Below, piece after piece: positions 18,832-36,377 of a DNA stretch of 49,579 nt. This stretch comes from a virus (lineage: Duplodnaviria; Heunggongvirae; Uroviricota; Caudoviricetes): positions 64,067 to 113,645 of IMG/VR virus record IMGVR_UViG_3300021354_000001; one strand, given 5' to 3'. Under the pieces are notes generated by a model. The model saw only the letters and a program-made list of their open reading frames with translations, was not told where the DNA came from and made no database searches. The first letter of the stretch is position 1. Each line of letters opens with the position of its first letter. Made by a program: the position numbers and the translations under genes.

Positions 18832-19215
18832 ATGAAATTAATTCAACCAGTAACTTCTTGGGCAAATGGGCAATCCGTAGAAGCAAAAATTTTAAATGCC
18901 TATTCAATAAATGACAACTTAGTAAATTCAGCTAATTTCTACTATGCTCTTTTAGAAGAGAATGCAGATGAAAGCGTAGGTGCAATGGTAGCACAAGGAA
19001 ATCTTACAATGACAGGAGATGATTATACAAATTATGAAACTAACCTTTATGCTTGGGATTGGGTAGCAGCACAATTAAATCTTACTATCATAGGCGATTA
19101 TGTCCCACCAGTACCAAGTACAACAACCACAACAACTGAAGCTCCAGTGGAAACAACAACAACTACCACCACCACTGAAGAACCATTAACCACCACTACT
19201 ACTACTACTATTTAA
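18832..19215 (+). CDS. Fibre-associated small protein with mucin-like poly-Thr C-terminal tail
   Basis: Follows the fibre gene; ends PSTTTTTTEAPVETTTTTTTTEEPLTTTTTTTI. Confidence 0.7.
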   Translation: MKLIQPVTSWANGQSVEAKILNAYSINDNLVNSANFYYALLEENADESVGAMVAQGNLTMTGDDYTNYETNLYAWDWVAAQLNLTIIGDYVPPVPSTTTTTTEAPVETTTTTTTTEEPLTTTTTTTI

Positions 19216-19220
19216 AATAA

Positions 19221-19252
19221 TTTGGTAAATTAAATTATTTAAAATAGCTTTG
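19221..19252 (+). promoter_or_regulatory. Bacteroidota-type promoter (-33 TTTG, -7 TAGCTTTG)
   Basis: TTTG 19221-19224 and TAGCTTTG 19245-19252. Confidence 0.7.
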
Positions 19253-19270
19253 TAGGAAAATCAAAACATT

Positions 19271-19606
19271 ATGAAAACAGTTAAATTAAAGGTGATTAAA
19301 GAAAACATTGGTGGTAGAGATACAATCTTAACTACATATGATCTACTTAAATCAACAATAAACAACCCAAAAGAGGGTGGTTTTAATGTAGATGAAATGA
19401 TTAAAAGATTAAGACTTCTTGAGAAATTAGATGCTCATAAAGAAACATTCTCAATAAAAGAAGCTGATCTTGAAAACTCTTTAGCTATAACAGCAGAACT
19501 TTCTCTTGAAGATGCTGATTACAATGATTTAAAAGAGCTTTTAAAAGGTATGAAATGGGGAGTTATCTCTCAAGCTATTGTTGATTTAGCTAACGAGTTT
19601 AAATAG
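19271..19606 (+). CDS. Hypothetical protein (possible fibre chaperone)
   Basis: 111-aa helical ORF with A-rich start, downstream of the fibre genes. Confidence 0.6.
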   Translation: MKTVKLKVIKENIGGRDTILTTYDLLKSTINNPKEGGFNVDEMIKRLRLLEKLDAHKETFSIKEADLENSLAITAELSLEDADYNDLKELLKGMKWGVISQAIVDLANEFK

Positions 19607-22600
19607 TTTATTAATCACTCTACTTGCTTTAATACCCCTATGACATTCAAAATGTTTAGGGGTATTTTTGTTAATAGGGCACCAATCCCAATCCCCTTTA
19701 TCAAATTTAAAATTAGGATTGTTCCAGCATCCATGACATAAACTCTCATCTGTAATTCTAATACAATTAGATTGAAACTCATGGTCCTTGTTGGTAAAAT
19801 TAGAGATCATTACCACCTTTGTTCCTACAGCCCAAGCTAACCAGCTAAGCCCTGAACTAAGTCCTATGAAGAATTCACTATGATAGATTACACTCATGGT
19901 GTTCTCAATGCTTATATCATCTATCTTAATGCAATTATCAAATGGATTATTCTCTTTGGATACATTGATGATTTTATATCCTTCATTGTGTAAATAGTTA
20001 ATCACTTCCTGCCAACCTTCTCTGGTCCAGAACTTACATCCTGTTGTAGAATTAGTAGCTATTGTAACATACCTACCATATTTATTATTACCACGATCAA
20101 ACTTTATATTAGGTCTAATCTCTTGAAAATCAAGACCTAAGATGTTGGTAGCTGCTTGTTGAAGTGGAATAGTGTTTGGTAAAACTGGTTCTTTATTACT
20201 ATTGTATTTCCAACCAAGAACATATTGTCCATATGTATTCACTGTAGATCCTGGTTCTACAAATTCAAGCTCAGGATAGTCCAGTATTTTATTCCAAAAA
20301 GTGGACACAACCACTATACAATTATGTTTCTTTTTAAACTCTAAGCAATAAGGTATCCAAGCTAATGTATCTCCCAGACTCTCACTATCAAAATGTATAA
20401 ACACTGTCTTACTTGTATAATCTAATGTGTAATTATATATAAGCTTATCATCTTGCCAAACCTTTGTTGTCCATTTAGTATAATATTCTCTATTTAATTT
20501 AACCCAATGGTTTATTTTTATATTAAATTCAGTAGAAAGACTACCATTTTCTTCATAAAAACAAACTTTAAACAGACTACCACTCACTCCTTTTATTTCT
20601 AAAAAGGGTTGAATAACAAAATGTTGTTTAATATCCACCCTTTGTTCTTGGAGAGGAATATTCATTACAGTGTTATAAAAGTTTTTATAGGCATTTGTAT
20701 AATCATCTAATTGATTTGGAATACTATATGTAGCTTTTATATCATGTAAGTTTGTATCTATGGGCTGTATGTAGTCAGTAAACATATCTTCATACTGCTC
20801 TAGGTTTCTAGCTACAATAGGTAAGCCATAACCAATTGCTTCTCTAAGAACTAGAGGATTACATTCCCATGTACTATTGAACATAAATATATCAGTAGCC
20901 TCCATAAATAGTTGTGTATCAGCTCTTTCTCCCCATATGGTTATATTAGGTGGTAGGTCTTTCATTAATGGTTCCCAATAATATTTGAAATTAACAGCTT
21001 GGTTACCTACAAAATGAAAATCCATATCAGGATAGTTACGAGCTATCTCAAGTCCTTCTCCCTGATTCTTACCTTGTGTCCACAGTCCTACATTCAATAC
21101 ATTAGTCCTAACTAAACTGATTCCTAATTTAACCTTTGCTTTATGTTTAACTATATCAGATACAACATTGTTCTCTATAGGAAACTCAATCACCTCTTTA
21201 TATGATGGTAAGTTAGCAAATGTCTTTAAGTGATATGGTGTACAGAAAGCATATGCATCAGGATGAAATATCTTTTCATTAGGATTAAAACTCACATCAT
21301 GACAGGTTTCTACAATCCTATAAGTTCTATTAGGATTGTATAGTTCTGTAATCATTTCTCTATCAAATCTTTCAGCTGGCTCATGTATATGAATAATGTC
21401 TGGTTGAATATGATAGATGAGATCAAATAGTTCCATTTTGTTCTCATATAATGTATATACATCTACTAGTTCTTTAATAGCATTACGCTGTACAACATAG
21501 TCTAAGCTATGACATTGATATTCAATTACACTTATATGTACGTAATTCTGTAGCACCTCTACAGTTTTCTGAAGGAAAGCAGGCATTCCTCCTGTGGATA
21601 GATGTGGAGCTAAAAACATTATATTTAGCTTTTTGTCTTTAAGCTTATCAATCATCTTGTACATAACATCTGGTCTCTTTTCCCCATGATAGAATAATAG
21701 ATTTTCTTTTTTAGGAAGTTTAAACCACTGCCAATGCTCCTTATCAAATTCATATTCATCTATCTTATTAAGAATATCAAGACTGGCATTAGTGTATAAA
21801 TATGGTAGACAATCTGTATGTCCATTTTTCCATAAGAGAACATTTGCAATAGTTTCTTCATGAAAGGGAGCATAGAGTTTAAAATCTTCTTTAATTTTAG
21901 GGTGAGTACACATCCAATACCATTCATCTAAAAATGGTATACAATCCTGATTAGCTATAAAATATCCTGTTTGTCTATAAGAACCTCTTTCTGCATCAAA
22001 GAACTCACAAGCTGGAAGCTCAAGATTAGCTTTTCCATTTAACATCATCACATCATATATACTATCTACAAATAGTGGATAGTCAGTAATAGAGAAGTCA
22101 AATATTCTATCTACTAGTGGTGTAGCTACACTATCACTATCTACATAAGCCACTGTATTAGCATATTTAAGACAGTCTTTAACAATCATTGGACGCTCTA
22201 TAAGGATGTTGTAAATCCTATCATCTGTTCTATTAATATAGAATTGATCTTTAGTATTGTATTCTATCTCTTTGATATTACAATCCCATCTGATGGTGGT
22301 AGCTTTATATATCTTTGCATCAGAGTTGAGCATGTATACAAACACTGGATGTTTACTAAATGTAACTAGAGAGTTTACACAAGCTGTTACAATATCATAA
22401 TAAGCCTCTGTAGCATATAGTACAAAAGCTTTATCAATCATCTTTCTTTCTATGTAATATCCATAAAACATATTTCCATAGAGGAGTTCTAATGTGGGAT
22501 AGCGTTCACTCATCACCTCTGTTGTCAAATCTGGTTGTAGATGAGTTTCATATATATTACCCTCATATGTTCCTTGTTCCATCATGTAAGGAATAGCAAC

Positions 22601-22942
22601 TAAACATTGCTTCCCAGCATTCTTCACATCTTGTATAAGCTTCTGTCCTTCCTCAGCTGTTAAATGTTCTAACACATCTCCTAAAATAAGGAAGTCATAA
22701 TTTGACCAATCAAATGTACGTATGTCTCCATCATAAATAACATCATAATAATTCCACAATTCATATTGATCAATATAAGGAGCCCATATCTCAAGAGCAT
22801 CTATGTCATATTCAAGATGTTCTAACAACTTACCATATGTACCTTCTCCAGCACCTACATCTAGTATTCTTGTATTAGCAGGAACATTGTTCTTGAACCA
22901 TTCCTTCACCTCATTTTTAAAGAATTTATAACTAGTAGGCAT
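19586..22942 (-). CDS. Four-domain polyprotein: class I SAM methyltransferase + GT-A glycosyltransferase + GT4-like GT-B + autotransporter O-heptosyltransferase (Aah/TibC-like)
   Basis: ILDVGAGEG (MTase); YVDSD DxD and HEETIAN (GT-A); APHLSTGGMP and ECNPLVLREA (GT4); SLGDTLAW, FFIGLSSGLSWLAW and CHGCWN..DWCP..FEC (BAHT Cys motif). ATG at 22942 preferred over the upstream ORF-track start. Confidence 0.8.
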   Translation of the reverse strand: MPTSYKFFKNEVKEWFKNNVPANTRILDVGAGEGTYGKLLEHLEYDIDALEIWAPYIDQYELWNYYDVIYDGDIRTFDWSNYDFLILGDVLEHLTAEEGQKLIQDVKNAGKQCLVAIPYMMEQGTYEGNIYETHLQPDLTTEVMSERYPTLELLYGNMFYGYYIERKMIDKAFVLYATEAYYDIVTACVNSLVTFSKHPVFVYMLNSDAKIYKATTIRWDCNIKEIEYNTKDQFYINRTDDRIYNILIERPMIVKDCLKYANTVAYVDSDSVATPLVDRIFDFSITDYPLFVDSIYDVMMLNGKANLELPACEFFDAERGSYRQTGYFIANQDCIPFLDEWYWMCTHPKIKEDFKLYAPFHEETIANVLLWKNGHTDCLPYLYTNASLDILNKIDEYEFDKEHWQWFKLPKKENLLFYHGEKRPDVMYKMIDKLKDKKLNIMFLAPHLSTGGMPAFLQKTVEVLQNYVHISVIEYQCHSLDYVVQRNAIKELVDVYTLYENKMELFDLIYHIQPDIIHIHEPAERFDREMITELYNPNRTYRIVETCHDVSFNPNEKIFHPDAYAFCTPYHLKTFANLPSYKEVIEFPIENNVVSDIVKHKAKVKLGISLVRTNVLNVGLWTQGKNQGEGLEIARNYPDMDFHFVGNQAVNFKYYWEPLMKDLPPNITIWGERADTQLFMEATDIFMFNSTWECNPLVLREAIGYGLPIVARNLEQYEDMFTDYIQPIDTNLHDIKATYSIPNQLDDYTNAYKNFYNTVMNIPLQEQRVDIKQHFVIQPFLEIKGVSGSLFKVCFYEENGSLSTEFNIKINHWVKLNREYYTKWTTKVWQDDKLIYNYTLDYTSKTVFIHFDSESLGDTLAWIPYCLEFKKKHNCIVVVSTFWNKILDYPELEFVEPGSTVNTYGQYVLGWKYNSNKEPVLPNTIPLQQAATNILGLDFQEIRPNIKFDRGNNKYGRYVTIATNSTTGCKFWTREGWQEVINYLHNEGYKIINVSKENNPFDNCIKIDDISIENTMSVIYHSEFFIGLSSGLSWLAWAVGTKVVMISNFTNKDHEFQSNCIRITDESLCHGCWNNPNFKFDKGDWDWCPINKNTPKHFECHRGIKASRVINKLFKLVS
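19631..19669 (+). terminator. Intrinsic terminator embedded in the 3' end of the convergent glycosyltransferase gene
   Basis: AATACCCCTA / TAGGGGTATT 10-bp stem followed by TTT. Confidence 0.65.
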
Positions 22943-22950
22943 ATGATTAT

Positions 22951-22988
22951 TTTGTACAAATTTAAGAAAGATTAGGTATATTTGCAAA
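22951..22988. promoter_or_regulatory. Overlapping divergent Bacteroidota-type promoters
   Basis: + strand: TTTG 22951-22954 and TATATTTG 22977-22984. - strand: TTTG 22988-22985 and TAAATTTG 22964-22957. Confidence 0.7.
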
Positions 22989-22996
22989 AAAACATT

Positions 22997-23371
22997 ATGA
23001 AAATAGAAGTGAGTATAGGAGAGATAGTAGACAAGTTCACCATCTTAACTATTAAAAGTGAAAGAATAACAGATGAGGATAAGTTAAAGAATGTTACAAA
23101 AGAACTAGGTTATCTGTTAGGAAAAGTTCTTGAATTTGGTATAGATCTGGAAGATGAACTAGTAACAAGTCTTCTTGATGTAAATAAAGACTTATGGAAC
23201 ATAGAAAATAGTCTTAGAATCTGTGAAAAATATAAACTATTTGATAATGAATTCATTGAATTAGCCAGATTTGTATACATATTGAATGATAAAAGAGCTG
23301 ATATTAAGAAAAAGATTAATATAGCTTATGGTTCTCAGTTTGTAGAAGAGAAGTCATATGATACATATTAA
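22997..23371 (+). CDS. DUF6165-like protein (phage glycosyltransferase-linked)
   Basis: MKIEVSIGEIVDKFTILTIK..LWNIEN.LR..ARFVY.LNDKRADIKKKIN..GSQFVEEKSY pattern. Confidence 0.7.
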   Translation: MKIEVSIGEIVDKFTILTIKSERITDEDKLKNVTKELGYLLGKVLEFGIDLEDELVTSLLDVNKDLWNIENSLRICEKYKLFDNEFIELARFVYILNDKRADIKKKINIAYGSQFVEEKSYDTY

Positions 23372-23379
23372 AAAAAAGA

Positions 23380-23411
23380 TTTGGTAATTTCAACTGTTTT
23401 ACATAGCTTTG
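23380..23411 (+). promoter_or_regulatory. Bacteroidota-type promoter upstream of the lysis cassette
   Basis: TTTG 23380-23383 and TAGCTTTG 23404-23411. Confidence 0.7.
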
Positions 23412-23448
23412 CGTGTACTACTATAATTACCTAAACTAAATAGCACAT

Positions 23449-23470
23449 ATCTCCTTAATAGGGGATTTTT
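23449..23470 (+). terminator. Terminator-like hairpin between that promoter and the lysis genes
   Basis: ATCTCCT-TAAT-AGGGGAT followed by TTTT. Confidence 0.5.
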
Positions 23471-23498
23471 GTGTTATATACATCCCTCTTAATCCATT

Positions 23499-23846
23499 AT
23501 GGAAACAAATAACTTCAAACAAGAATTAATCAATATGGATCTTAGACTTACAGAGATGGAAGAGAAAATTGACTCTATTAACACAAAGTTAACTCAAGTG
23601 GTGGATGCAATTATTGGGAATCCATTAACAAAGGTGGGGGGGTTCATTGGTGAGATTGAAATCATGAAGGCAAAAATTCTTGAATTAGAGAAGCAGCAAG
23701 TTAAATATGAAGAGTTTAAAAAGAAAACACTGTGGACTATAGGTGTAATAATGGCTATAGGAGCATTAATTCAATACGCTACAAGCATTTATTCAAATGT
23801 TAACACTGTAAAAACAGCTGAATCCACGCAAATCAAAACTCCATGA
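23499..23846 (+). CDS. Coiled-coil membrane protein, holin/antiholin-like
   Basis: Coiled coil plus one C-terminal hydrophobic helix; first gene of the lysis cassette. Confidence 0.5.
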   Translation: METNNFKQELINMDLRLTEMEEKIDSINTKLTQVVDAIIGNPLTKVGGFIGEIEIMKAKILELEKQQVKYEEFKKKTLWTIGVIMAIGALIQYATSIYSNVNTVKTAESTQIKTP

Positions 23847-24184
23847 AATTAAAAGACATAGCATTTGTTACTATTATTGTAATATTAGTGACAAAGATTT
23901 TATTCTTTTCACCAAATAAAGCAACAAAGTCTCTTCAGGAAGAAAACAAAGCTTTGACAGACTTAATAGCTCTCTCCATTAAAACTATAGACAGTCTTAA
24001 TATTGCTCAAGCTGTAGAAACAAAGCAAATAGATAGTCTAATTAAGCTTCGTAATGTTATAAAGATAAAATACAAAACTATATATGAAGAATATCAAACC
24101 AAAGATTCTCTTGTTAATAGCCTGTCTGTTGACAGTATTGTTGGGCTATGGACAAAAAGATACAGTTATTATCAAACCAAATGA
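23843..24184 (+). CDS. Putative inner-membrane spanin component
   Basis: N-terminal TM followed by coiled coil; overlaps the next ORF by about 100 nt. Confidence 0.5.
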   Translation: MKLKDIAFVTIIVILVTKILFFSPNKATKSLQEENKALTDLIALSIKTIDSLNIAQAVETKQIDSLIKLRNVIKIKYKTIYEEYQTKDSLVNSLSVDSIVGLWTKRYSYYQTK

Positions 24185-24512
24185 TTCTTTGGTAATTATC
24201 ACCAAAGGAATGGCAATTGATATAACAAAAGACTTAGTTAAGAAAGACTATCTAGAGCAAAAGGTGATTCTTTTAGAGAAAGATACAGCAGTTTTGTCGC
24301 AAATGTTTGCTAAATATGTGACAGAATTAGCTATAGCTAATAAGAAAGAAGAAGCTTATAAGTCTATTATAGCTGATGATAAAAAGATAATAGGTAATTT
24401 TAATAACTATATCACTAAACAAGATAGAACATTAAAACTTACAAAGATTAAATCAACCACTGCACAAATATTTCTTTTAGTTTCAACTATATTTATAATA
24501 GTAAAAATTTAG
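24084..24512 (+). CDS. Putative second spanin component (signal peptide/possible lipobox, coiled coil, C-terminal TM)
   Basis: MKNIKPKILLLIAC signal; out-of-frame overlap with the upstream gene; hydrophobic C-terminus. Confidence 0.45.
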   Translation: MKNIKPKILLLIACLLTVLLGYGQKDTVIIKPNDSLVIITKGMAIDITKDLVKKDYLEQKVILLEKDTAVLSQMFAKYVTELAIANKKEEAYKSIIADDKKIIGNFNNYITKQDRTLKLTKIKSTTAQIFLLVSTIFIIVKI

Positions 24513-24514
24513 AT

Positions 24515-24718
24515 ATGAAATTTGGATGGTCACATTACTGGGAATCTACACCTAAAGGTGTTAGAAAGATAGCAGATGCAATAGTATCTGCTTGTGTATT
24601 TGCAGGTGGTCTTACATCACTCAATGGACATCCTATTGTAGGAACCATCATATTTGCTACAGGATTTGTAGCTAAAGCAGTATCAAATTTCTTCACTGAT
24701 GATACCTCTGCAGCATGA
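24515..24718 (+). CDS. Putative holin
   Basis: 67 aa with two hydrophobic helices, coupled (ATGA) to the lysozyme. Confidence 0.6.
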   Translation: MKFGWSHYWESTPKGVRKIADAIVSACVFAGGLTSLNGHPIVGTIIFATGFVAKAVSNFFTDDTSAA

Positions 24719-25188
24719 TTATAATAAACGATGAGTGTATAGACTTAATAAAATCCTTTGAAGGATTCTCTGCAAAAGCTTATCATGATGATATTGATCC
24801 TCCAGGAGTAGATACAATTGGATATGGCACCATAGTTTATCCACCTACTTATATGGGAGGTAAACGTGTGAAGGTTGGTGATACACCAATCACTGAGGCT
24901 CAAGCAGTTGCATTTCTTAAATGGGAAGTGGAGCTTAAAACTAAAGCAGTGGATATACTACTTAGAGATGACCTTACAGCTAATCAGTTTGGAGCTCTTG
25001 TAAGTTTTACATATAACCTAGGTGAGGGTTCTTTAAAAGGCTCTACACTACGTAAGAAGGTTAATGTTGATCCAACTGATCCAACTATACTACTTGAGTT
25101 TCTTAAATGGGATATGGCTAGTGGGGTTCATTTAAAAGGATTACAAAGAAGAAGACAAGCTGAAGCTGATTTATATTTTAAAAAATAA
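24715..25188 (+). CDS. Endolysin, GH24 lysozyme
   Basis: IKSFEG..AY.D..TIGYG; QFGALVSFTYNLG; GLQRRRQAEADLY. Confidence 0.93.
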   Translation: MIIINDECIDLIKSFEGFSAKAYHDDIDPPGVDTIGYGTIVYPPTYMGGKRVKVGDTPITEAQAVAFLKWEVELKTKAVDILLRDDLTANQFGALVSFTYNLGEGSLKGSTLRKKVNVDPTDPTILLEFLKWDMASGVHLKGLQRRRQAEADLYFKK

Positions 25189-25825: not shown

Positions 25826-25933
25826 ATGGCATATCCATTCACTAAACAACCTGAACCTGTACACTCTGAACAAGTAAAAGCTATTCTTGATAGATTAACT
25901 ACTAGTACAACAACCACTCAAACTCCACAATAA
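25826..25933 (+). CDS. 35-aa micro-protein with Thr-rich tail (below the ORF-track cutoff)
   Basis: MAYPFTKQPEPVHSEQVKAILDRLTTSTTTTQTPQ; TAATG coupling to the next ORF. Confidence 0.55.
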   Translation: MAYPFTKQPEPVHSEQVKAILDRLTTSTTTTQTPQ

Positions 25934-26384: not shown

Positions 26385-26822
26385 ATGGCAATACCTTCTA
26401 GACAGATAGGATGGGGCACAGAAGAGAATCTCTTATGGCAGATATCCAAACAATTGGAATACCTCACAGGGGTGGCATATGCTGCTGGATCAGCATCTTC
26501 TACAACAACATTTCCAGTTCCTGCAGCTGCTAGTACAGTTAGTACAACTGCTGGTGCAGGCACTACAATTATTAATTTTGAAGGGCCCATTGCTAATAGT
26601 TTTACATTAGATGTAACAACAGCACCTGGTGCTCAATTGGGAAATAAGATTTATTTGATGATTACAGGTGGAAATCCTAGTGGAACAATAACATTTGCAG
26701 GAGATCTTAATAATATTGAATGTGGTACTTCTTATAATACATATATTCCTGATAATAATACAAGAAATGTTATTGAATTTGTATATGATGGTCTAGTTTG
26801 GACTGGAATAGATAACTGTTAA
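26385..26822 (+). CDS. MAIPSRQIGW-module protein with Ser/Thr linker and beta domain
   Basis: First ~30 aa nearly identical to those of the next ORF. Confidence 0.75.
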   Translation: MAIPSRQIGWGTEENLLWQISKQLEYLTGVAYAAGSASSTTTFPVPAAASTVSTTAGAGTTIINFEGPIANSFTLDVTTAPGAQLGNKIYLMITGGNPSGTITFAGDLNNIECGTSYNTYIPDNNTRNVIEFVYDGLVWTGIDNC

Positions 26823-26832: not shown

Positions 26833-27015
26833 ATGGCAATACCATCAAGACAAATAGGTTGGAGTACAAAAAGCAATTTGCTTTGGCAGATATCTAAGCA
26901 ATTAGAAGCTTTGACAGGAGTGATGGCTAGGAACCTTCCTGCTACCACCACCACTACAACTAGTAGTAGTACTAGCACAAGCACTACGACCACAACTACT
27001 ACAGCTACTCCATAA
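26833..27015 (+). CDS. MAIPSRQIGW-module protein with poly-Thr/Ser tail
   Basis: MAIPSRQIGWSTKSNLLWQISKQLEALTGV + ATTTTTTSSSTSTSTTTTTTTATP. Confidence 0.75.
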   Translation: MAIPSRQIGWSTKSNLLWQISKQLEALTGVMARNLPATTTTTTSSSTSTSTTTTTTTATP

Positions 27016-27039: not shown

Positions 27040-28056
27040 ATGAAGGATTTAAAATTTATCTGTGCCCAACCAGATGATACTTATTACACTTGGCAGGTAC
27101 ATGCTTGGTTAGAAAGTCTTAAGAATATTGGGCACTCAGATAAAGCTATTGTACTTGTGTACACTCCTAGCTTTAGACAGAAAAGTGATAAATGGCAAAA
27201 GATTGAAGACCTCTATCCAGAAGCAGAGTTTGCTTATTACAAGGATGGGGGGGAGGTCAGTCAGCTCTTAGGAACTTATATTCCTGTTCTGCGTCCTTAC
27301 AGTCTTATGAGATACTTCCAGGATAATCCTGAAATGTCTACAAAAGCTGTCTTCTATTGTGATTGTGATATATTATTTACAGATAAATTTAATGTAGATG
27401 CTTATATAGATGATGACACATGTTATCTCTCTGACACAAACAGCTACATAAATGCTTCATACTTTGATAGTAAGATAAAGGATGTGCTTCCTGATATGAT
27501 AGAAGCATATAAAAAGATTGATGTTTTAGAGCAGCTTGCTTCTAAAATTGGTATTTCAAGAAAGATAGCTGAGGCTAACAATAACAACTCAGGAGGAGCA
27601 CAATACTTCTTAAAGAATGTAGATGGTGCTTTCTGGGAAAAGGTGATGAAAGATTGTATAACAATACGTTTGTATTTACAAACTATAAATAAACAATATT
27701 TCGCAAATGAGAATAAAGGGTTTCAAAGCTGGTGTGCAGATATGTGGGGAGTGTTATGGAACCTTTGGTTGATAGAAAAAGAAACTAAAAATATACCTGA
27801 AATGGACTTTTCCTGGGCATCAGATCCAATTGAGAAGGTGCAAAAGCTTGGAATGTTCCACAATGCAGGTATAACTAGTAGAGACATGGATGGTTATCCT
27901 GCTTTTTACAAAGGGGCTTACCACACTGGTAAAGATCCATTTGAAGATACACATATGCTCACAGTGGCTAATGATGTAAATGCTAAAGGTAGAGGAACAC
28001 ATTACTATGTCACAAAACTTATTGAATTAAAAAACAAATATAATTTAAATTACTAA
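27040..28056 (+). CDS. GT-A glycosyltransferase, resembling peptidyl Ser/Hyp O-glycosyltransferases (GT96/GT95-like)
   Basis: YYTWQ near the N-terminus, LRPYSL, DCD DxD (27361-27369), GGAQY, WCADMW; family is my recollection of motifs. Confidence 0.55.
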   Translation: MKDLKFICAQPDDTYYTWQVHAWLESLKNIGHSDKAIVLVYTPSFRQKSDKWQKIEDLYPEAEFAYYKDGGEVSQLLGTYIPVLRPYSLMRYFQDNPEMSTKAVFYCDCDILFTDKFNVDAYIDDDTCYLSDTNSYINASYFDSKIKDVLPDMIEAYKKIDVLEQLASKIGISRKIAEANNNNSGGAQYFLKNVDGAFWEKVMKDCITIRLYLQTINKQYFANENKGFQSWCADMWGVLWNLWLIEKETKNIPEMDFSWASDPIEKVQKLGMFHNAGITSRDMDGYPAFYKGAYHTGKDPFEDTHMLTVANDVNAKGRGTHYYVTKLIELKNKYNLNY

Positions 28057-28058
28057 TT

Positions 28059-28301
28059 ATGGCCCAAAATAATAATCGCCCTCTCAAAGCTTATGTACGC
28101 TTTGATGGTACTGGAAGAATAGTTCCAAGCAGCCTAATTTTACGGAGAAAGAAACCAAAGGTGGGTAAATGGGTAGAAATTCCAGCTTATGAATGCTGCA
28201 ATTATGTTCCTACAACAACCACTACAAGTACAAGTAGTACAACAACAACCACTACCACAACTGCTACTCCTACCACTACAACAACAACAACTGTACTTTA
28301 A
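28059..28301 (+). CDS. LKAYVR-module protein with poly-Thr tail
   Basis: LKAYVRFDGTGRIVPSSLILRRKKPKVGKWVEIPAYECC + PTTTTTSTSSTTTTTTTTATPTTTTTTTVL. Confidence 0.75.
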   Translation: MAQNNNRPLKAYVRFDGTGRIVPSSLILRRKKPKVGKWVEIPAYECCNYVPTTTTTSTSSTTTTTTTTATPTTTTTTTVL

Positions 28302-28313: not shown

Positions 28314-28739
28314 ATGGCAAATAGCAATAATAGATTAAAAGCATATGTACGTTATGATGGTACAGGACGTGTTATAGCAGGTAGTTTAATTCTACAAAGA
28401 TCCAAACCAAAGATTGGTAACTGGCATGAGATTCCTGCACATGAGTGTTGTAATCCTGCTCCTACAGTACTATTATTTAGTCCAAATCTTCCTTATTCAT
28501 ATCCTGCTGTAACTATCTATTGTGATGAAGTGAATGTAGCTTATGCATATGTACAAGATAATACAGAGATTACAACTATAGATCAATTAGTAGAAGCACT
28601 TAATGCAAATGAAAATACTCGTGCATTTGGAACATATTCAAACGCAGGACCAGGAGGTCTTCAATTAACAGTTCCATTATCAGTTAAGAATAACTTATGT
28701 CCTAATGGAATTTTAACGTTTTCATCTCAAGCAGACTAA
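28314..28739 (+). CDS. LKAYVR-module protein with C-terminal beta domain
   Basis: LKAYVRYDGTGRVIAGSLILQRSKPKIGNWHEIPAHECC, paralog of the preceding ORF. Confidence 0.75.
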   Translation: MANSNNRLKAYVRYDGTGRVIAGSLILQRSKPKIGNWHEIPAHECCNPAPTVLLFSPNLPYSYPAVTIYCDEVNVAYAYVQDNTEITTIDQLVEALNANENTRAFGTYSNAGPGGLQLTVPLSVKNNLCPNGILTFSSQAD

Positions 28740-30358: not shown

Positions 30359-30359
30359 A

Positions 30360-30392: not shown

Positions 30393-30417
30393 TAATTAAA
30401 CCAAAAAAATAAATTAT

Positions 30418-30672
30418 ATGTCAGAAGTAGTAAATGAAAAACCAGCATTTGATCCAAATAAGAAATACACATGGTCAATGGATACAGAATTTGTATTAAG
30501 TGGTAGTGAGTTTGGTCTTGTTTTAAATGCTTTACGTAGCATAGTTAGTACACCAGAAGCTCAATCTATCTTCTTAGCTAATAAAGCTGTAGATATGATT
30601 GAAACAACTCTTGGAAAAGCAATTGAAGCTGGTAGTGTTCAAGAAATAGTTGAGAACAAAGCAAGTTTATAA
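30418..30672 (+). CDS. Hypothetical protein
   Basis: 84-aa ORF after the promoter. Confidence 0.6.
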   Translation: MSEVVNEKPAFDPNKKYTWSMDTEFVLSGSEFGLVLNALRSIVSTPEAQSIFLANKAVDMIETTLGKAIEAGSVQEIVENKASL

Positions 30673-30690
30673 AAAATTAAAAACATTAAT

Positions 30691-30888
30691 ATGGCAACAG
30701 TTAAAAAGTCTGGAGGTAGTCTTTCAGGATTAAAAGCTTCTAATAAGCGTGTAGGTCCTGTAGATCCTAAAGGTGCTTGGACTAAGGTTCAAAAGAAAAC
30801 ATTAGCACATGCTAAAGGAAAAGCTAAGCTTACACCTGATAAAGAGTTAGGTGCTACAAAAATGAAAAGTAAAGCTAAAAGTAAATAA
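30691..30888 (+). CDS. Lys-rich small basic protein (MATVKK family)
   Basis: MATVKKSGG start, very basic. Confidence 0.65.
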   Translation: MATVKKSGGSLSGLKASNKRVGPVDPKGAWTKVQKKTLAHAKGKAKLTPDKELGATKMKSKAKSK

Positions 30889-30890
30889 TC

Positions 30891-31049
30891 ATGGCTACCG
30901 CTAAGAAAGATAAAAAATGGATTCAAAAGGCTGTAAATCCTGCACATAAGGGATTTTGCACACCCCTTTCTAAAGCTACATGTACTCCTAAAAGGAAAGC
31001 ATTAGCTAAGACATTCAAAGCAATGGGTAGAGCTAGAAAAGCAAGCTAA
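30891..31049 (+). CDS. 52-aa basic micro-protein
   Basis: MATAKKDKKWIQKAVNPAHKGFCTPLSKATCTPKRKALAKTFKAMGRARKAS; coupled to the next ORF. Confidence 0.65.
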   Translation: MATAKKDKKWIQKAVNPAHKGFCTPLSKATCTPKRKALAKTFKAMGRARKAS

Positions 31050-31240
31050 TGATATTTGAACCTCAAAATAGGGTGGAAGTTAGTACACCTAAAGGTGATG
31101 GAATAATATGGATGGTTATAGATTATGGTCATGAGACAGATACAATTTACACAGTGATTATAAATGACACTGGTGAATTCTGGCAATTTACTCATAAGAA
31201 TATTAGAGCTAAAAAAAATATAACATTTAATAGAAAATAA
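31049..31240 (+). CDS. Hypothetical small beta protein
   Basis: V.TPKGDG....IDYG.E.D pattern; TAATG coupling. Confidence 0.6.
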   Translation: MIFEPQNRVEVSTPKGDGIIWMVIDYGHETDTIYTVIINDTGEFWQFTHKNIRAKKNITFNRK

Positions 31241-31241
31241 A

Positions 31242-32213
31242 ATGAGTAGAAATCCAAAGTTAAAACCTTATGCAAGATTTTTAAAAAATAATGAAATAGT
31301 ATCAGGAAGTCTTGGTTTATACACTCATGCTCCTACTGTTGGTATTTGGAAGGAAGTTCAACCAATTGAATATTTTAATAAAACTACTAAACATTATAGT
31401 GAGGTAGTTAATGCTACATATCCAAATGCTTTATTAGCTAACAATGTTGCTTATAAATTAGTAAGTTTTCTTGATGGTTTAGGTGCTGATGCATATAATA
31501 CTGTTTTGAATTCTACAGTTTGTTCAGATGATGTTAATGCTTCTGAGTTTGCTAATATATTTAACATAGGTCAAAATCCTCCAGCATTAAATAACTATCT
31601 TGGACCATTTATGGGTGGTGGACTTGCTGGATATCCTCACACAGGTATATTAGGAGCACAAGCTTGGCAAAGTCACACTACATCAGATGATAATGCAAAT
31701 GGACCATTATTATTAATTAACATGCCTCATATAGGAATTACACAACAAGCTGACCTTATTGCAGCTAATGATAATGTAGGTAGAATGTTAAGAAGAGGTA
31801 AGAGTTCTGCTACAGCTGATAATACATGTGGAGCTGTTGCTACAGCTATTGCTGATGCAATTACATTAAATGGTGTTGCACCAGTGGCTACAAATGCTCC
31901 TTTTGTAAACAATTATCAAAGATATCAACTTGCATTAATTGTTTATGCTTCTTATACTTATTATAATACACATACATATTCACAGAATATGATTCAAGCT
32001 ACAGAACTTATAAGAGTTGCAAGTTATAATATATTACATAATACAATTATTCCTGCATTAGGATCTGTAAACAATTTATATTTGTTTAGTGGTACATTTA
32101 TTAATGCTGATGATGGTTATTCTGCATTTATTAATATTAATTCATTAGAAGTAAGAACTGGATCAACTTGGACATCTCTTACAACAAGTTTTTTAAATTT
32201 TGTAAATGGCTAG
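31242..32213 (+). CDS. LKAYVR-like N-terminal module fused to an LCIB/theta-type carbonic anhydrase domain
   Basis: NTVLNSTVCSDD, GGLAGYPHTG..G..A..SH, PHIGI, VGRMLRRG, DNTCGA; Zn ligands Cys94/His163/Cys196 present. Confidence 0.75.
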   Translation: MSRNPKLKPYARFLKNNEIVSGSLGLYTHAPTVGIWKEVQPIEYFNKTTKHYSEVVNATYPNALLANNVAYKLVSFLDGLGADAYNTVLNSTVCSDDVNASEFANIFNIGQNPPALNNYLGPFMGGGLAGYPHTGILGAQAWQSHTTSDDNANGPLLLINMPHIGITQQADLIAANDNVGRMLRRGKSSATADNTCGAVATAIADAITLNGVAPVATNAPFVNNYQRYQLALIVYASYTYYNTHTYSQNMIQATELIRVASYNILHNTIIPALGSVNNLYLFSGTFINADDGYSAFININSLEVRTGSTWTSLTTSFLNFVNG

Positions 32214-32613
32214 TATTAAAAAACCTGGTCCTTATAACCCACAGAAAGCAACAGCTTATGTAGGGAAAGGTGTTCTTAAGAATGGTGGTGGTATCACTCC
32301 TGTTCCTAATGGTCCTTTAGTTAAAAAGAAAGGAGAGTTTAAAGGAAGCACATTAAAAAATGGTGGATCTACACCTGCTTGGACTAGAAAAGAGGGTAAG
32401 AATCCAAAAGGTGGATTGAACGCTAAAGGAAGAGCTTCATACAATGCAGCTAATCCTGGTTCTCATCTTAAAGCTCCTCAACCAGAAGGTGGTCCTCGTA
32501 AGAGATCATTCTGTGCTAGGATGTCAGGAATGAAGAAGAAGCTTACAAGCTCTAAAACAGCTAATGATCCTAATTCACGCATAAATAAAAGTTTGAGAAA
32601 GTGGAAGTGCTAA
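32206..32613 (+). CDS. DUF6321-like basic protein
   Basis: AWTRKEGKNPKGGLNAKGRASYN..RKRSFCARM..SRINKSLRKWKC. Confidence 0.75.
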   Translation: MASIKKPGPYNPQKATAYVGKGVLKNGGGITPVPNGPLVKKKGEFKGSTLKNGGSTPAWTRKEGKNPKGGLNAKGRASYNAANPGSHLKAPQPEGGPRKRSFCARMSGMKKKLTSSKTANDPNSRINKSLRKWKC

Positions 32614-33224
32614 TTAGTAATGAAAATAAACAAAAATACTTTTCTGAAAAACAAAAAGGAGGAGTTATTTATAAAATTACTAATAAGATAGATGGTAAGT
32701 TTTATATAGGAAGTACAAACAATCTGATAAAAAGATATTATACTCATATAAATCATATAAGAACTAATAAAAATACTTGTGTTAAACTAATTAGAGCAGT
32801 TAATAAACATGGAGAAGATAACTTTAAGTTTGAGATTATTTGTGAATGTTCTACAGAAGAAGTTCTTAAATTTGAACAGAAATATTTAGACAGCCTAAAG
32901 CCACATTATAATGTTGCTAAAATTGCTGGAAGTAATCTTGGAATTAAAAGAACACAAGAAGTTAAACTTAAAAAGTCAGTTTCCCAAAAAGAAAATTGGA
33001 AAGATGAGTCTTATAGAGTTAAACATCTAGAAAATTTATCAAAGAACTGGAAAAGTGGAACCAGTCATAAAATGGCTAAACTTACAGAAGAACAAGTAAT
33101 TCAAATTAAAAAACAATTATTAATTGGTCTTCTTCCTAAACAAGTTGCAGATACTCTTAAAGTAAGTTATTACTCTGTAAAAGATATTCATAGAGGAAAA
33201 ACTTGGAAAAATATAATTGTATGA
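32601..33224 (+). CDS. Free-standing GIY-YIG homing endonuclease with C-terminal HTH
   Basis: GVIYKITN..FYIGST..KRY..H..E..Y..YN catalytic module; KLTEEQV..V.DI.RGKTW DNA-binding tail. Confidence 0.88.
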   Translation: MEVLISNENKQKYFSEKQKGGVIYKITNKIDGKFYIGSTNNLIKRYYTHINHIRTNKNTCVKLIRAVNKHGEDNFKFEIICECSTEEVLKFEQKYLDSLKPHYNVAKIAGSNLGIKRTQEVKLKKSVSQKENWKDESYRVKHLENLSKNWKSGTSHKMAKLTEEQVIQIKKQLLIGLLPKQVADTLKVSYYSVKDIHRGKTWKNIIV

Positions 33225-33361
33225 AAAAGAAAGTAAACAAATTAGGAGTTGAAAACTCCCTTTGGAATAACATAAGAGCTGCTAAAGGCTCTGGTAAGAA
33301 ACCTACAACACAAATGCTTAAGCAAGAAAAGAAAATTAAATTACAATCTAAAAAGAAATAA
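33221..33361 (+). CDS. 46-aa basic micro-protein
   Basis: MKKKVNKLGVENSLWNNIRAAKGSGKKPTTQMLKQEKKIKLQSKKK; ATGA overlap with the endonuclease. Confidence 0.6.
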   Translation: MKKKVNKLGVENSLWNNIRAAKGSGKKPTTQMLKQEKKIKLQSKKK

Positions 33362-33363
33362 AA

Positions 33364-33795
33364 ATGGCTACTGTTAAAAAATCAATGAAAAAAGCAGCTC
33401 CTAAGAAAATGATGGCTGCTCCTCAACAATCTGCTCCAATGCAAGCTCCTCCTATGGGTGGTCCAATGATGAAGAAAGGTGGTAAAATGAAAAAGGCACA
33501 AGATGGTACAAGTGTATCAGAATTCTTAGCAAAAAGAAAAGCTGCTTCTAAAGATAGTACACCAAAATATGATAGAGGTGAAGCTATGAAGAAGTATGGT
33601 ATTGCTAAAGGAGAAAGTCAAGCATCTAAAGATAGTACTTCTGCTGCATATGAACCTACTCGTGAAGCAGGTATGAAATCAATGGGATATAGTAAGAACA
33701 AACCTGCAGGTTATAAAGCAGGTGGTAAAATAGCTAAAGCTATGAAAGTGGTAAAAGCTGTTAAAGCTGTTAAAAAAGCAATTAAATCTAAATAA
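33364..33795 (+). CDS. Lys-rich GG-motif protein
   Basis: MATVKK, MKKGG, KKAQDG, YKAGG. Confidence 0.7.
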   Translation: MATVKKSMKKAAPKKMMAAPQQSAPMQAPPMGGPMMKKGGKMKKAQDGTSVSEFLAKRKAASKDSTPKYDRGEAMKKYGIAKGESQASKDSTSAAYEPTREAGMKSMGYSKNKPAGYKAGGKIAKAMKVVKAVKAVKKAIKSK

Positions 33796-33797
33796 TT

Positions 33798-34043
33798 ATG
33801 GCAACTATTAAGAAGCTTGCAAAAGCACAAATGGGAAAAGATGTTCCTAAAGACAAAGCTAGAACAGAAATGGGTGATCTTGTTGATAGAAAAGAATTCT
33901 TAAAAAGACAAGATTCTATGGCTGATAATCTAGATAGACTATCTGGGAAAGGTAAATATGCTCCTAAAGCTAATCCTGCTATCAATAACAAACCTGTTGT
34001 TAAAAAACCTATGAAAATGGGTGGTAAAATGAAAAAGAAATAA
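33798..34043 (+). CDS. Lys-rich GG-motif protein
   Basis: MATIKK, KAQMG, MKMGGKMKKK. Confidence 0.7.
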   Translation: MATIKKLAKAQMGKDVPKDKARTEMGDLVDRKEFLKRQDSMADNLDRLSGKGKYAPKANPAINNKPVVKKPMKMGGKMKKK

Positions 34044-34064
34044 AAACTAATAAAATTAATTAAT

Positions 34065-34523
34065 ATGGCAACTATTAAAAAATCTATAAAAAAGATTAAA
34101 AAAGCTCAAAATGGTGCACCAATACGTAACGGTGAACGAACTGCAGATAGTTCAAATTATTATACCAAAAAAATATTGGATAATATAGAAGCAGGTTCTA
34201 ATCTTAGAAAAGCAGGGGTTAGTGAAAAAAATCTTGCTGGATATACAAGAGAGGCTATCAAAGCAGAAGATAATTTAGACAGACAAAGTTATAAAGGAAT
34301 GGCTGGTTTTGATAAAAATGGATTTCCTGTACTTAAGAAAAAAAATGGTGGTAAAATGGCAAAAGCAAAATCTGGTGGTTCATTTCCTGATTTAAACAAA
34401 GATGGTAAAATCACCAAAGCTGATATTCTTAAAGGACGTGGTGTTATTGCTAAGAAAGGTGCAAAGGTTGGAAAAGCTAAAATGGGATGTATGTCTTGTG
34501 GTGGCAAAATGAAAAAGAAATAA
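34065..34523 (+). CDS. Lys-rich GG-motif protein with an EF-hand-like DLNKDG loop
   Basis: MATIKK, KKAQNG, KNGG, KSGG, FPDLNKDGKITKADILKGRG, GGKMKKK. Confidence 0.7.
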   Translation: MATIKKSIKKIKKAQNGAPIRNGERTADSSNYYTKKILDNIEAGSNLRKAGVSEKNLAGYTREAIKAEDNLDRQSYKGMAGFDKNGFPVLKKKNGGKMAKAKSGGSFPDLNKDGKITKADILKGRGVIAKKGAKVGKAKMGCMSCGGKMKKK

Positions 34524-34546
34524 TTAATAATTTAAAATAAAATAAA

Positions 34547-34822
34547 ATGGCTATTGCTAAAAAAGTTAAGAAATATCAAACTGGTGGTAATATAGGTGGT
34601 TCTTCTGCATCTAAAGGTCCTAAACAAACTGCAGCTCAAGATAGTGCTACAAATAAAAAAATGAATAGTGCAGTTAAATCATCTATTGGAGATGATTTTA
34701 AAAAAGCAGGAATGATACCTATAAGTGATACTGCTGGTATGAGAAAAGCAGGTATAGATATAAATAAAAGATACAAAGCTGGTGGCAAAGTTGTTAAAAA
34801 AGTAGTTTCTAAAAAGAAATAA
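34547..34822 (+). CDS. Lys-rich GG-motif protein
   Basis: MAIAKK, KYQTGG, RYKAGG. Confidence 0.7.
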   Translation: MAIAKKVKKYQTGGNIGGSSASKGPKQTAAQDSATNKKMNSAVKSSIGDDFKKAGMIPISDTAGMRKAGIDINKRYKAGGKVVKKVVSKKK

Positions 34823-34823
34823 T

Positions 34824-35000
34824 ATGGCAGTAAAAGCTATGACAGCTGGTAAAGCTAAGAAATCAGGTGCACCTCGTAAGGCACCAAAGGTAGCTCCTCC
34901 TAAACCTATCAATGGTAATTATATGAAGGAGAGTGACAGTCCTAAGACCAAAGGAAAATCTCCTATGGCTCCTATGACTGGTAAAAAGTTATCAAAATGA
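34824..35000 (+). CDS. 58-aa Lys/Pro-rich micro-protein
   Basis: MAVKAMTAGKAKKSGAPRKAPKVAPPKPINGNYMKE..; 1-nt gap after the upstream stop. Confidence 0.6.
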   Translation: MAVKAMTAGKAKKSGAPRKAPKVAPPKPINGNYMKESDSPKTKGKSPMAPMTGKKLSK

Positions 35001-35086
35001 TCTGTGCTGTACATGAGATTCTTCTCATTGAAGGAGAATGTCCTAAATGTATGGAACAAAGTAATAAAAAGGCCCCTATAAATTAG
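34997..35086 (+). CDS. 29-aa Cys/His micro-peptide (possible Zn knuckle)
   Basis: MICAVHEILLIEGECPKCMEQSNKKAPIN (CxxH..CxxC); ATGA coupling. Confidence 0.4.
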   Translation: MICAVHEILLIEGECPKCMEQSNKKAPIN

Positions 35087-35095
35087 GGGCTTTTT
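35066..35095. terminator. Bidirectional intrinsic terminator at the convergence of the late and replication blocks
   Basis: AAAAAG-GCCCCTA-TAAAT-TAGGGGC-TTTTT. Confidence 0.85.
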
Positions 35096-35632
35096 CTATT
35101 TCTTTATTCCCCAAAAATATAAATCTTGAGGCCATGTTTCTCTAGCAATAAATTCATGCTCAGAGAAATGGTTTTCCATATCTATCTCTTCACGAACATC
35201 TTGTTCTGTGAGATTCATGTAATAATCATTTTCTATTAAGGATGTAAATGGAGAGTCTTGAGGACTTGTTCTACGTGTACCATGTTCAGGTCTTCCTGTT
35301 GTAGCACAGCTAAACAAAAACACTCCCCCTAGTTTAGTTAAAGCAATACAGTTTTTAATTGTATCCTTCCAGAACTCATCATGTTCAAAGCACTCAGCTG
35401 ATATAACAATATCAAATCCTTCAGAGTCTTTGAATTCATGTCCTCTACATACAATATCTACATTCTTTCCTGCACCAATATCTACACCAATGTATTTATA
35501 ATCTGTAAATAAATATCTATTGTTTCCATTAATATCTAATGAACCAATATCTAGCACTCTACAATTAACAAACTTTTCAGGAAACTTATCTTTTACATAT
35601 GTCATGAATGTTCTTTGTTCTGGATGTGCCAT
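35096..35632 (-). CDS. Class I SAM-dependent methyltransferase
   Basis: VLDIGSLDING, GVDIGAGKNVD, FDIVISAECFEHD. Confidence 0.85.
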   Translation of the reverse strand: MAHPEQRTFMTYVKDKFPEKFVNCRVLDIGSLDINGNNRYLFTDYKYIGVDIGAGKNVDIVCRGHEFKDSEGFDIVISAECFEHDEFWKDTIKNCIALTKLGGVFLFSCATTGRPEHGTRRTSPQDSPFTSLIENDYYMNLTEQDVREEIDMENHFSEHEFIARETWPQDLYFWGIKK

Positions 35633-35633
35633 T

Positions 35634-36377
35634 TTATAAGTTTAAATATGTCTTTAATAAATCTACATAGTCTATCTTCCAACAAGGATTTAATTGAACA
35701 TCTCCTGTAGGAATATTTCCTTTACTTCTTTCTCTTTCAATATGAGCACTGTGTCTTTGTATAGCATTGAGTTTTCCAGAATGATCTGTACCTTCACCAC
35801 TCATATGATAACCTCTACCTCCCCACATATAGAACCAACTTGCTTCTTCTTTAGGAGGTTTAGCAAACAGTCTTCCTCCATATGCATTAATGCGTTCAAT
35901 GAATGTCATATCATATCCAGCATTCTCAAGAGGATGTCCTCCTATAGCTTTCCAAGCTGACTTTCTAAACACAATACCAGAGTTACCTATCCAACCAACC
36001 TGTTCAATACCTGTAACATGACATAACACTCCTGTTTCCCAATGAATAATATTCACCTTATCAGTCATGTATTTAGCTACATTTTTTAAATGGTGTGGTA
36101 GAGCTACATCATCATCATCCCATTGACATATTATATCTCCTTGGCATAATTCTGTTGCATAGTTTTCCTTTTCACCTATAGTATCAAATGTTTTGTCTAG
36201 GTTAAATATCTTAATTTGAGGATGATCAAATACAAGAGTTTGTAAAGGATAATCATTAACTATTATAAGCTCACATCTATCTGCAGGATAGTCTTGCTTG
36301 AGGAAAGATTCAACACTCTCCTCAAGCGTAACTATTCTACCATAGGTTATACATTTACATGATATAAATGGATACAT
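35634..36377 (-). CDS. GT2-family glycosyltransferase
   Basis: TYGR..LEE..SFLKQDY, ELIIVND, WDDDD motif; ATG at 36377 preferred. Confidence 0.85.
   Translation of the reverse strand: MYPFISCKCITYGRIVTLEESVESFLKQDYPADRCELIIVNDYPLQTLVFDHPQIKIFNLDKTFDTIGEKENYATELCQGDIICQWDDDDVALPHHLKNVAKYMTDKVNIIHWETGVLCHVTGIEQVGWIGNSGIVFRKSAWKAIGGHPLENAGYDMTFIERINAYGGRLFAKPPKEEASWFYMWGGRGYHMSGEGTDHSGKLNAIQRHSAHIERERSKGNIPTGDVQLNPCWKIDYVDLLKTYLNL

Follow-up and report, generated by a model that had tools for sequence, protein, structure and literature searches.

The 49,579-nucleotide stretch analysed here (the window) is positions 64,067 to 113,645 of the IMG/VR virus record IMGVR_UViG_3300021354_000001, and forms the last 49.6 kb of a complete phage genome of 113,645 bp with direct terminal repeats. 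Three loci in the window encode glycosyltransferases (GTs): a four-domain polyprotein at 19586-22942, a single-domain enzyme of GT-A fold at 27040, and a GT2-family enzyme paired with a methyltransferase (MTase) at 35096-36377. Late genes of the phage encode a collagen-like fibre and a set of proteins with poly-threonine tails, the candidate acceptors of the first two loci (genes are named by their first position; Table 1). The original prediction, made from the DNA letters alone, had counted five GT and two MTase domains here, and Pfam, NCBIfam, PHROG and structure-prediction results confirm that count. It had also listed four small proteins with Thr-rich tails, three of which (18832, 26833 and 28059) are real, while the open reading frame (ORF) at 25826 is doubtful because it has only 35 amino acids (aa) and a weak tail and is kept in the closest relatives alone (copies at least 94% identical). 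The long Thr/Ser tracts that it had noticed in the fibre are present but were corrected to collagen-like G-X-Y triplets.

Within the polyprotein, Pfam matches place a MetW-like MTase at residues 17-119 and a GT1/GT4 domain at residues 625-724, and residues 811-1113 match TIGR04414, the family of the Aah/TibC heptosyltransferases, at 245.5 bits, against a curated equivalog cut-off of 200. This TibC-like domain matches the TibC crystal structure 4rap with E=6e-45 (phmmer) and keeps the catalytic base Asp110, an LGD motif being aligned with TibC G109-D110, as well as the four iron-finger cysteines Cys339/342/358/370 (C-H-G-C ... W-C-P ... F-E-C) and the sugar-binding Thr226, Lys230 and Trp305 (roles of the TibC residues from PMC4358343). 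The alignment starts at TibC residue 62 (profile position 49), the beta-barrel of TibC being residues 1-97, and the ~40 residues ahead of it are beta-rich by eye. The middle domain (residues 186-465) gave no match in Pfam, NCBIfam or PDB-sequence searches; its model, with a predicted local distance difference test score (pLDDT) of 86, has a GT-A fold of the GT6/GT8 kind, with GT6, GT8 and GT31 enzymes as top matches, and the DxD in its VDSDS motif is invariant in 16 homologues. Common descent of this domain and the 27040 enzyme as paralogues was considered and set aside, profile comparison having found no relationship. Of 80 related loci, 74-78 have the GT-A, GT4 and TibC-like domains fused as a core, and 35 have the MTase. 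Distant TibC-like genes in loci L405, L443 and L456 (38-43% identical) are separate ORFs beside a GT4 gene and a collagen-like fibre, and the polyprotein fusion therefore has unfused forms.

The 27040 enzyme belongs to phrog_4417, a family annotated as 'unknown function'. Searches of Pfam, NCBIfam and PDB sequences returned no match, and its identity came from folding alone. Its AlphaFold2 model (pLDDT 91) has a GT-A fold with 269 PDB matches at E<=1e-3, the best 50 of which are all GT-A-fold proteins (WbbM, UGGT, GT6, glycogenin), and D108-x-D110 is invariant in 51 diverse homologues. Among Swiss-Prot structures it comes closest to a plant peptidyl-Ser alpha-galactosyltransferase, with a template modelling (TM) score of 0.62, and to hydroxyproline (Hyp) O-arabinosyltransferases (TM ~0.6). 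The likeness to these GT96 and GT95 enzymes is structural (TM 0.57-0.62, 12-14% identity), and membership of GT95 or GT96 was not found at the sequence level. No membrane segment is visible in the translation of any of the GTs, read by eye. The phrog_4417 GT family comprises 757 clusters at 50% identity, with 77 members in sequenced isolate phages, nearly all of Gram-positive bacteria; it is rare, occurring on at least 585 stretches among 2.9 million contigs.

Over the whole genome, 20 runs of seven Thr codons (T7 runs) lie on the late-gene strand and none on the opposite strand; a reversed-sequence control gives one per strand. Poly-Thr tracts are thus far above chance and confined to late-gene proteins; their codons are mixed (ACA, ACT and ACC). 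Further poly-Thr proteins are encoded beyond the window: one of 380 aa whose gene adjoins the capsid genes, one that is tail-fibre-like, two small ones and a homologue of the muzzle protein. Homologues of 18832 with tails of variable length are found in 26 of 80 related loci. A PHROG match of 18832 to 'major tail protein' was discounted, as it rests on the low-complexity Thr tail.

Poly-Thr ORFs cluster around the 27040 gene and its homologues. In 80 viral contigs with a 62-96% identical GT-A, whose 6-kb flanks were scanned, a poly-Thr ORF is found no more than 400 nt upstream of the enzyme gene in 59 of 74 relatives and no more than 400 nt downstream in 64 of 78, and 169 of the 187 poly-Thr ORFs in the flanks sit within 1 kb of the gene. 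A search of viral contigs with a 14-sequence alignment returned the same lineage only, and independent lineages were taken from isolate phages: 12 loci from different genera, with GT-A homologues of 21-35% identity and Enterococcus, Lactococcus, Lactobacillus, Clostridium, Staphylococcus, Arcanobacterium or Chryseobacterium as host. Proteins adjoining the GT end in or contain poly-Thr in ten of these 12 phages, the gene concerned usually being the one directly upstream. For instance, Enterococcus phage phiFL1A has poly-Thr ends on its major head and major tail proteins (gp45/gp50), and in Lactococcus phage 1706 the capsid/protease and a 'major structural protein' (orf10/orf13) both end in TTTTTTTTT(T)HHD. 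Poly-Thr is carried by head, tail and 125-aa proteins in Lactobacillus phage iLp84, by tail proteins in bIL285, phiCTP1 and Arcanobacterium phage TPWB06, by small proteins in Staphylococcus phage PT94 and Lactobacillus phage Semele, and by two proteins in Chryseobacterium phage MA9V-3. Annotated major head or major tail proteins with poly-Thr ends thus stand beside a GT-A homologue in phiFL1A, 1706, iLp84, bIL285 and TPWB06, whereas the tails of the phage studied here are on the 380-aa late-block protein and on small proteins. As a side observation, the small poly-Thr proteins Semele gp075 and iLp84_8 (loci L084-L094) also bear the label 'major tail protein', probably through a low-complexity match to phrog_14018; iLp84_14 is the true tail-tube gene.

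The association was also examined from the opposite direction. Among 80 arbitrary viral loci chosen for (Thr)9 alone, five carry a phrog_4417 GT, in every case directly downstream of the poly-Thr ORF. A further comparison used 19 long relatives of the phage (79-100% complete), picked by terminase similarity, with terminases 83-88% identical. The GT-A is present in 17 of the 19, and 15 of those 17 have T7 runs; in the other two, the anchor ORF has 42 aa and its tail is short (T6 or TTSTTTT). Relative G010 (99% complete) has neither the GT-A nor a single T7 run, and its syntenic anchor ORF, of 36 aa, ends where the tail would begin.

A different partner is found for the polyprotein. The fibre contains hundreds of G-X-Y triplets in which X and Y are nearly always T or S, with no Pro; such repeats may form a triple helix. 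A pattern of eight G-T/S-T/S triplets is present in all seven relatives of the panel that have the TibC-like domain and in none of the 12 that lack it (Fisher p=2e-5, a value that overstates independence, as the 19 genomes are related). More broadly, 47 polyprotein loci had 8 kb or more of flanking sequence, and 35 of them, jumbo-phage contigs of up to 321 kb without poly-Thr included, have a convergent ORF downstream (median distance 1 kb) that encodes 30 or more G-X-Y triplets with T or S at 70% or more of the X/Y positions. Conversely, among 34 arbitrary viral loci picked for (G-T-x)5 and followed by 4 kb or more of sequence, six carry a TibC-like gene (38-67% identity), which in three of the six (38-43% identity) is an ORF separate from GT4. 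Six of the 19 relatives have abundant poly-Thr and the GT-A but no polyprotein, and T7 runs are absent from a complete 321-kb phage that encodes the polyprotein. The polyprotein therefore tracks the collagen-like fibre and not poly-Thr, and the initial expectation that the TibC-like enzyme acts on poly-Thr was dropped on these two grounds. Homologues of a DUF6165 protein, a possible accessory whose gene is divergent from that of the polyprotein, adjoin the polyprotein in 21 of the 80 related loci, and one occurs in the unrelated collagen locus L397.

The GT2 and MTase genes lie on the opposite strand, among early or metabolic genes, and no acceptor gene is linked to them. GT2 is present in 10 of the 19 relatives, uncorrelated with the TibC-like domain, and no homologue was found in the isolate phage collection. 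The pair is a third, accessory locus, inherited independently.

Table 1. Glycosyltransferase loci, candidate acceptors and adjoining genes (positions in the window)
Feature	Position	Strand	Basis
Fibre, 1914 aa, two long Pro-free collagen-like (Gly-Thr/Ser-Thr/Ser)n tracts; proposed acceptor of the polyprotein	13075..18819	+	translation
127-aa protein, C-terminal poly-Thr tail (T6-7 blocks split by E/A/P)	18832..19215	+	translation
Polyprotein, 1118 aa: S-adenosylmethionine (SAM) MTase ~22894-22586, GT-A ~22387-21548, GT4 ~21523-20747, TibC/Aah GT ~20512-19604	19586..22942	-	
DUF6165 protein, possible accessory	22982..23371	+	PF19662, 39 bits
35-aa ORF, weak TTSTTTT tail, doubtful gene	25826..25933	+	translation
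145-aa paralogue, N-terminal 'MAIPSRQIGW...QISKQLE' anchor, globular payload, no Thr tail	26385..26822	+	
60-aa protein, ~35-aa anchor and poly-Thr/Ser tail, directly upstream of GT-A	26833..27015	+	
GT-A, 338 aa, cytoplasmic, phrog_4417; proposed poly-Thr O-glycosyltransferase	27040..28056	+	
80-aa protein, ~50-aa N-terminal module and poly-Thr tail, directly downstream of GT-A	28059..28301	+	
141-aa paralogue, N-terminal module as in 28059, globular payload, no Thr tail	28314..28739	+	
SAM-dependent MTase, 178 aa	35096..35632	-	phrog_32762, E=4e-55; Methyltransf_23, 24 bits (below cut-off)
GT2-family GT, accessory gene	35634..36377	-	PF00535, 41 bits

From the domain identities, folds, conserved catalytic residues, gene adjacency and co-occurrence described above, we infer that sugars would be attached to proteins of the phage particle, and we consider it reasonably probable that this happens through at least two separate cytoplasmic O-glycosylation modules, each consisting of an enzyme gene and its own acceptor gene or genes. 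Both modules would modify particle proteins before or during assembly. In module A, the 27040 GT-A, with its DxD motif, probably a retaining enzyme, would use a host nucleotide sugar to glycosylate Thr residues of poly-Thr 'glyco-tags'. These tags would be the tails on the small anchor proteins 26833, 28059 and 18832, together with the tails or linkers on the 380-aa protein, the tail-fibre-like protein and the muzzle-protein homologue of the late block outside the window. In module B, the MTase/GT-A/GT4/TibC-like polyprotein would assemble a short glycan, possibly methylated, on the Thr/Ser residues of the fibre tracts, with the TibC-like domain as the likely initiating protein O-transferase. 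The possible benefits are fibre solubility or stiffness, shielding from proteases or antibodies, and adhesion. A wider version of this proposal is that poly-Thr is a portable tag with a dedicated phrog_4417 GT-A, coating capsids, tail tubes and small anchors in phages of at least three bacterial phyla, and that, separately, the TibC-like fusion glycosylates Pro-free collagen-like fibres; we give this version an even chance of being right.

The original prediction had instead envisaged one integrated pathway, in which the TibC-like enzyme initiates O-glycosylation of the small poly-Thr proteins and the glycans are then extended by the other GTs and capped by MTases, giving a single glycocalyx that might shield the particle or mimic the host surface. 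All of the components do lie within one 18-kb late-gene stretch, with the poly-Thr ORF 18832 between the fibre gene and the polyprotein, and giant viruses offer a precedent in which a single capsid glycan is made jointly by several GTs and MTases (PMC9614988). The single-pathway model is nevertheless contradicted by the independent inheritance of the three GT loci (GT-A in 17, TibC-like domain in 7 and GT2 in 10 of the 19 relatives), and it does not fit the abundance of poly-Thr in six relatives without the TibC-like polyprotein, the lack of poly-Thr in the complete 321-kb polyprotein phage, or the pairing of the polyprotein with the collagen-like fibre; we regard it as improbable. What survives of that proposal is its broader part, that the GTs are directed at proteins, not at DNA or lipopolysaccharide, and that their likely acceptors are Thr/Ser-rich parts of virion proteins, which the predicted folds, the families and the gene linkage support. 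The check it had named, co-occurrence of the GTs with poly-Thr ORFs in related phages, gave an association for the phrog_4417 GT-A but not for the polyprotein.

Two other explanations move the target away from the particle proteins. In one, the poly-Thr and G-T-S tracts are sugar-free flexible or structural linkers and the GTs modify the host envelope (lipopolysaccharide, capsule or surface proteins), for example as a block to superinfection. Families GT2, GT4 and GT9 act mostly on lipid-linked or polysaccharide acceptors, and the GT2/MTase pair is found among early or metabolic genes on the opposite strand and without a linked acceptor. A search of the complete genome for three sugar-nucleotide synthesis families, SIS_2 (GmhA-type), NTP_transferase and epimerase, found no gene of any of them, so that the phage would rely on host nucleotide sugars. 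This explanation leaves unaccounted for the proximity of the phrog_4417 GT to capsid or tail genes with poly-Thr ends, seen in phages of three bacterial phyla, the joint loss of tail and enzyme in G010, and the exact co-occurrence of the TibC-like domain with the collagen-like repeats; in addition, the TibC-like family is known only as protein O-glycosyltransferases (PMC4358343), and the GTs show no visible membrane segment. A role in the host envelope is possible for GT2, but it does not account for the linkage of the other two loci to candidate acceptor genes, and as an account of the whole it is unlikely. Glycosylation of modified phage DNA bases, as an evasion of restriction, is the other alternative, since phage GTs and MTases are known to hypermodify DNA (PMC13326640 and 10.1101/2023.12.21.572611). 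The complete genome encodes no thymidylate-synthase/dCMP-hydroxymethylase-like enzyme and no C5 DNA MTase, and DNA glycosylation is therefore unlikely; a Tet/JBP search also found nothing, although its control was uninformative. Since the best structural and family matches are protein O-GTs and the linked genes encode Thr-rich proteins, we consider a DNA target very improbable.

Several observations count against the two-module proposal itself. The evidence for it consists of sequence, predicted folds and gene distribution, and the particle location of the small poly-Thr proteins is likewise a prediction. Adjacency and co-occurrence could stem from co-transfer of neighbouring genes, and the 19 relatives, given their terminase identity, are not independent samples. 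For module A, the isolate phages SAC12B and LP65 (two of the 12 with a GT-A homologue) show no poly-Thr nearby, no phrog_4417 GT lies within the fetched stretch of 75 of the 80 (Thr)9 loci, and the 79%-complete fragment G023 contains poly-Thr although no GT-A was detected in it. For module B, 12 of the 47 polyprotein loci have no collagen-like ORF inside 10 kb, and the known acceptors of bacterial autotransporter heptosyltransferases (BAHTs) are beta-helical autotransporters, not collagen-like helices. Furthermore, Arg286 of TibC is replaced by Thr and the stereoselectivity positions differ (Ser294 to Glu, Pro300 to Ser), and the donor may therefore differ from ADP-heptose.

The phage has hundreds of relatives in IMG/VR, but a megablast of window positions 19000-37000 against isolate phages gave no match, and thus it has no close cultured relative. 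Its terminase, portal and major head protein genes lie outside the window, in the other half of the genome, together with the muzzle-protein homologue (1684 aa; PF25731, 87 bits), and the window itself encodes rIIA/rIIB, UvsX, ribonucleotide reductase, PhoH and dUTPase. Large-terminase identity is 39% with Leptolyngbya phage Lbo-JY46, 33% with Cellulophaga phi4:1 and 25-27% with crAss phages. On these identities the phage is only distantly crAss-like, and probably lies outside the described crAss families. The crAss-like affiliation assumed at the outset is corrected to a distant one. A 4390-aa ORF enters the window (1-7872; genome 58766-71938), followed by ORFs of 1675 and 1914 aa; its size and position recall the giant virion proteins of crAss-like phages.

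The GT loci had also been described as interleaved with structural genes; structural genes are indeed there, but so are lysis genes and genes of unassigned role. A likely lysis cassette (23499-25188, +) consists of small ORFs with hydrophobic, membrane-like segments (read by eye) followed by a lysozyme-family endolysin (24715-25188; NCBIfam BgtA-like, 93 bits, under that model's cut-off). Around the GT-A gene (26385-28739), and in relatives' loci, two N-terminal modules, 'M.IP.RQIGW..LLWQISKQLE' and 'K.LKA(Y/F)VR.DG.GR...KPKVGKW.E...(Y/F).CC', precede very different payloads: poly-Thr tails, small globular domains and, in relatives, domains of 245-422 aa (L374:5631-6187, L375:1345-4536, L376:1188-4235). 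The two modules look like interchangeable anchors. A 323-aa protein (31242-32213, +) of the LCIB/LCIC beta-carbonic-anhydrase family (PF18599, 67 bits), an unusual enzyme for a phage, opens with the ~45-aa N-terminal module common to 28059 and 28314. The neighbour of the GT-A module at 28755-29180 (+) is a DUF5856 protein (phrog_858 'starvation-inducible regulator', Dps/ferritin-like) that is kept in relatives. Farther on, window positions 30691-35000 (+) hold about eight small Lys-rich ORFs (52-152 aa), each beginning MA(T/I/V)xKK, in an array split by a GIY-YIG homing endonuclease (32601-33224, phrog_314); the Lys-rich products may be packaged DNA-binding or internal proteins.

To our knowledge, virion glycosylation by phage enzymes has been shown so far only for some mycobacteriophages. 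Freeman et al. (2023, Cell Host Microbe 31:1216) reportedly located the glycan sites at the C-termini of capsid and tail-tube subunits, and are said to have seen little sign of virion glycosylation in the wider phage population. In Che8, Corndog and Myrna, phage GTs glycosylate capsid and tail(-tube) proteins (summarised in PMC12363180). The system proposed here is similar in that cytoplasmic phage GTs would act on the phage's own structural proteins, with C-terminal tails as the predicted acceptors, and the pairing of a phage GT with a candidate acceptor at the C-terminus of a capsid or tail-tube protein is found at the sequence level in the isolate phages. Unlike the mycobacteriophage system, it occurs in an environmental, distantly crAss-related phage and in isolates from Firmicutes, Bacteroidota and Actinomycetota. 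Its candidate enzymes are the phrog_4417 GT-A and the TibC-like fusion, and it would add a homopolymeric poly-Thr tag and a second module for a collagen-like fibre.

TibC and Aah are cytoplasmic, iron-containing autotransporter heptosyltransferases (PMC4358343). As in these enzymes, the phage domain has the catalytic Asp and all four cysteines of the iron finger, together with three of the four residues that bind the sugar, and it would likewise modify Ser/Thr in the cytoplasm on a long, repetitive fibrous protein encoded nearby. It differs in being phage-encoded and fused to an MTase, a GT-A and a GT4, and in that the linked gene encodes a collagen-like G-T/S-T/S phage fibre rather than a beta-helical autotransporter passenger. 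By sequence, the TibC-like domain is a BAHT member, with a different predicted acceptor. An architectural parallel to the polyprotein is A064R of the chlorovirus PBCV-1, a GT-GT-MTase enzyme that builds a methylated glycan on the major capsid protein (PMC9614988). Both are cytoplasmic, multi-domain viral enzymes with at least two GT domains and a SAM methyltransferase, but A064R extends an N-linked glycan of a eukaryotic virus and differs in domain order and GT families, and the likeness is one of architecture.

Glycosylated collagen-like proteins have precedents as well. BclA of Bacillus anthracis carries O-glycans on Thr of GPT repeats, added by rhamnosyltransferases, and mimivirus L230 glycosylates collagen-like proteins (L230: PMC9614988). 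As on those particle or spore surfaces, the phage has a collagen-like G-X-Y protein with dedicated, here predicted, glycosylation enzymes; unlike L230, which acts through hydroxylysine, and BclA, with its rhamnosyltransferases, it has Pro-free G-T/S-T/S triplets and a TibC-like enzyme. The plant enzymes SGT1 (GT96) and HPAT (GT95), which the 27040 GT-A most resembles in structure, initiate O-glycosylation of repetitive proteins rich in Ser/Hyp; they are membrane-anchored in the Golgi, whereas the phage enzyme is cytoplasmic and 12-14% identical. The literature searched contained no earlier description of a poly-Thr/GT-A or TibC-like/collagen-fibre pairing in phages, and a search on TibC in phages gave nothing relevant. 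Both pairings follow a logic common to the mycobacteriophage, giant-virus and TibC/Aah cases, with other enzymes and acceptors.

The presence of the sequence signs of both modules in many unrelated phages suggests that self-glycosylation reaches well past mycobacteriophages. The sequence signature, a phrog_4417 GT beside poly-Thr-ending capsid or tail genes, or a TibC-like fusion beside a G-T/S-T/S collagen fibre, would make the question testable in easily grown phages of Enterococcus, Lactococcus, Lactobacillus and Staphylococcus. Several carrier phages matter for dairy fermentation or phage therapy, and in those uses glycans on the particle surface could alter adsorption, stability and recognition by the immune system. 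If the proposal is true, the autotransporter heptosyltransferase family would have its first phage-encoded member in the polyprotein, and the fibre would be the first glycosylated phage collagen. A large 'unknown' family of phage proteins would gain a function, and glyco-engineering a compact pair of enzyme and tag. Among phages, virion glycosylation would in that case be a common and modular feature, rather than a mycobacteriophage oddity.

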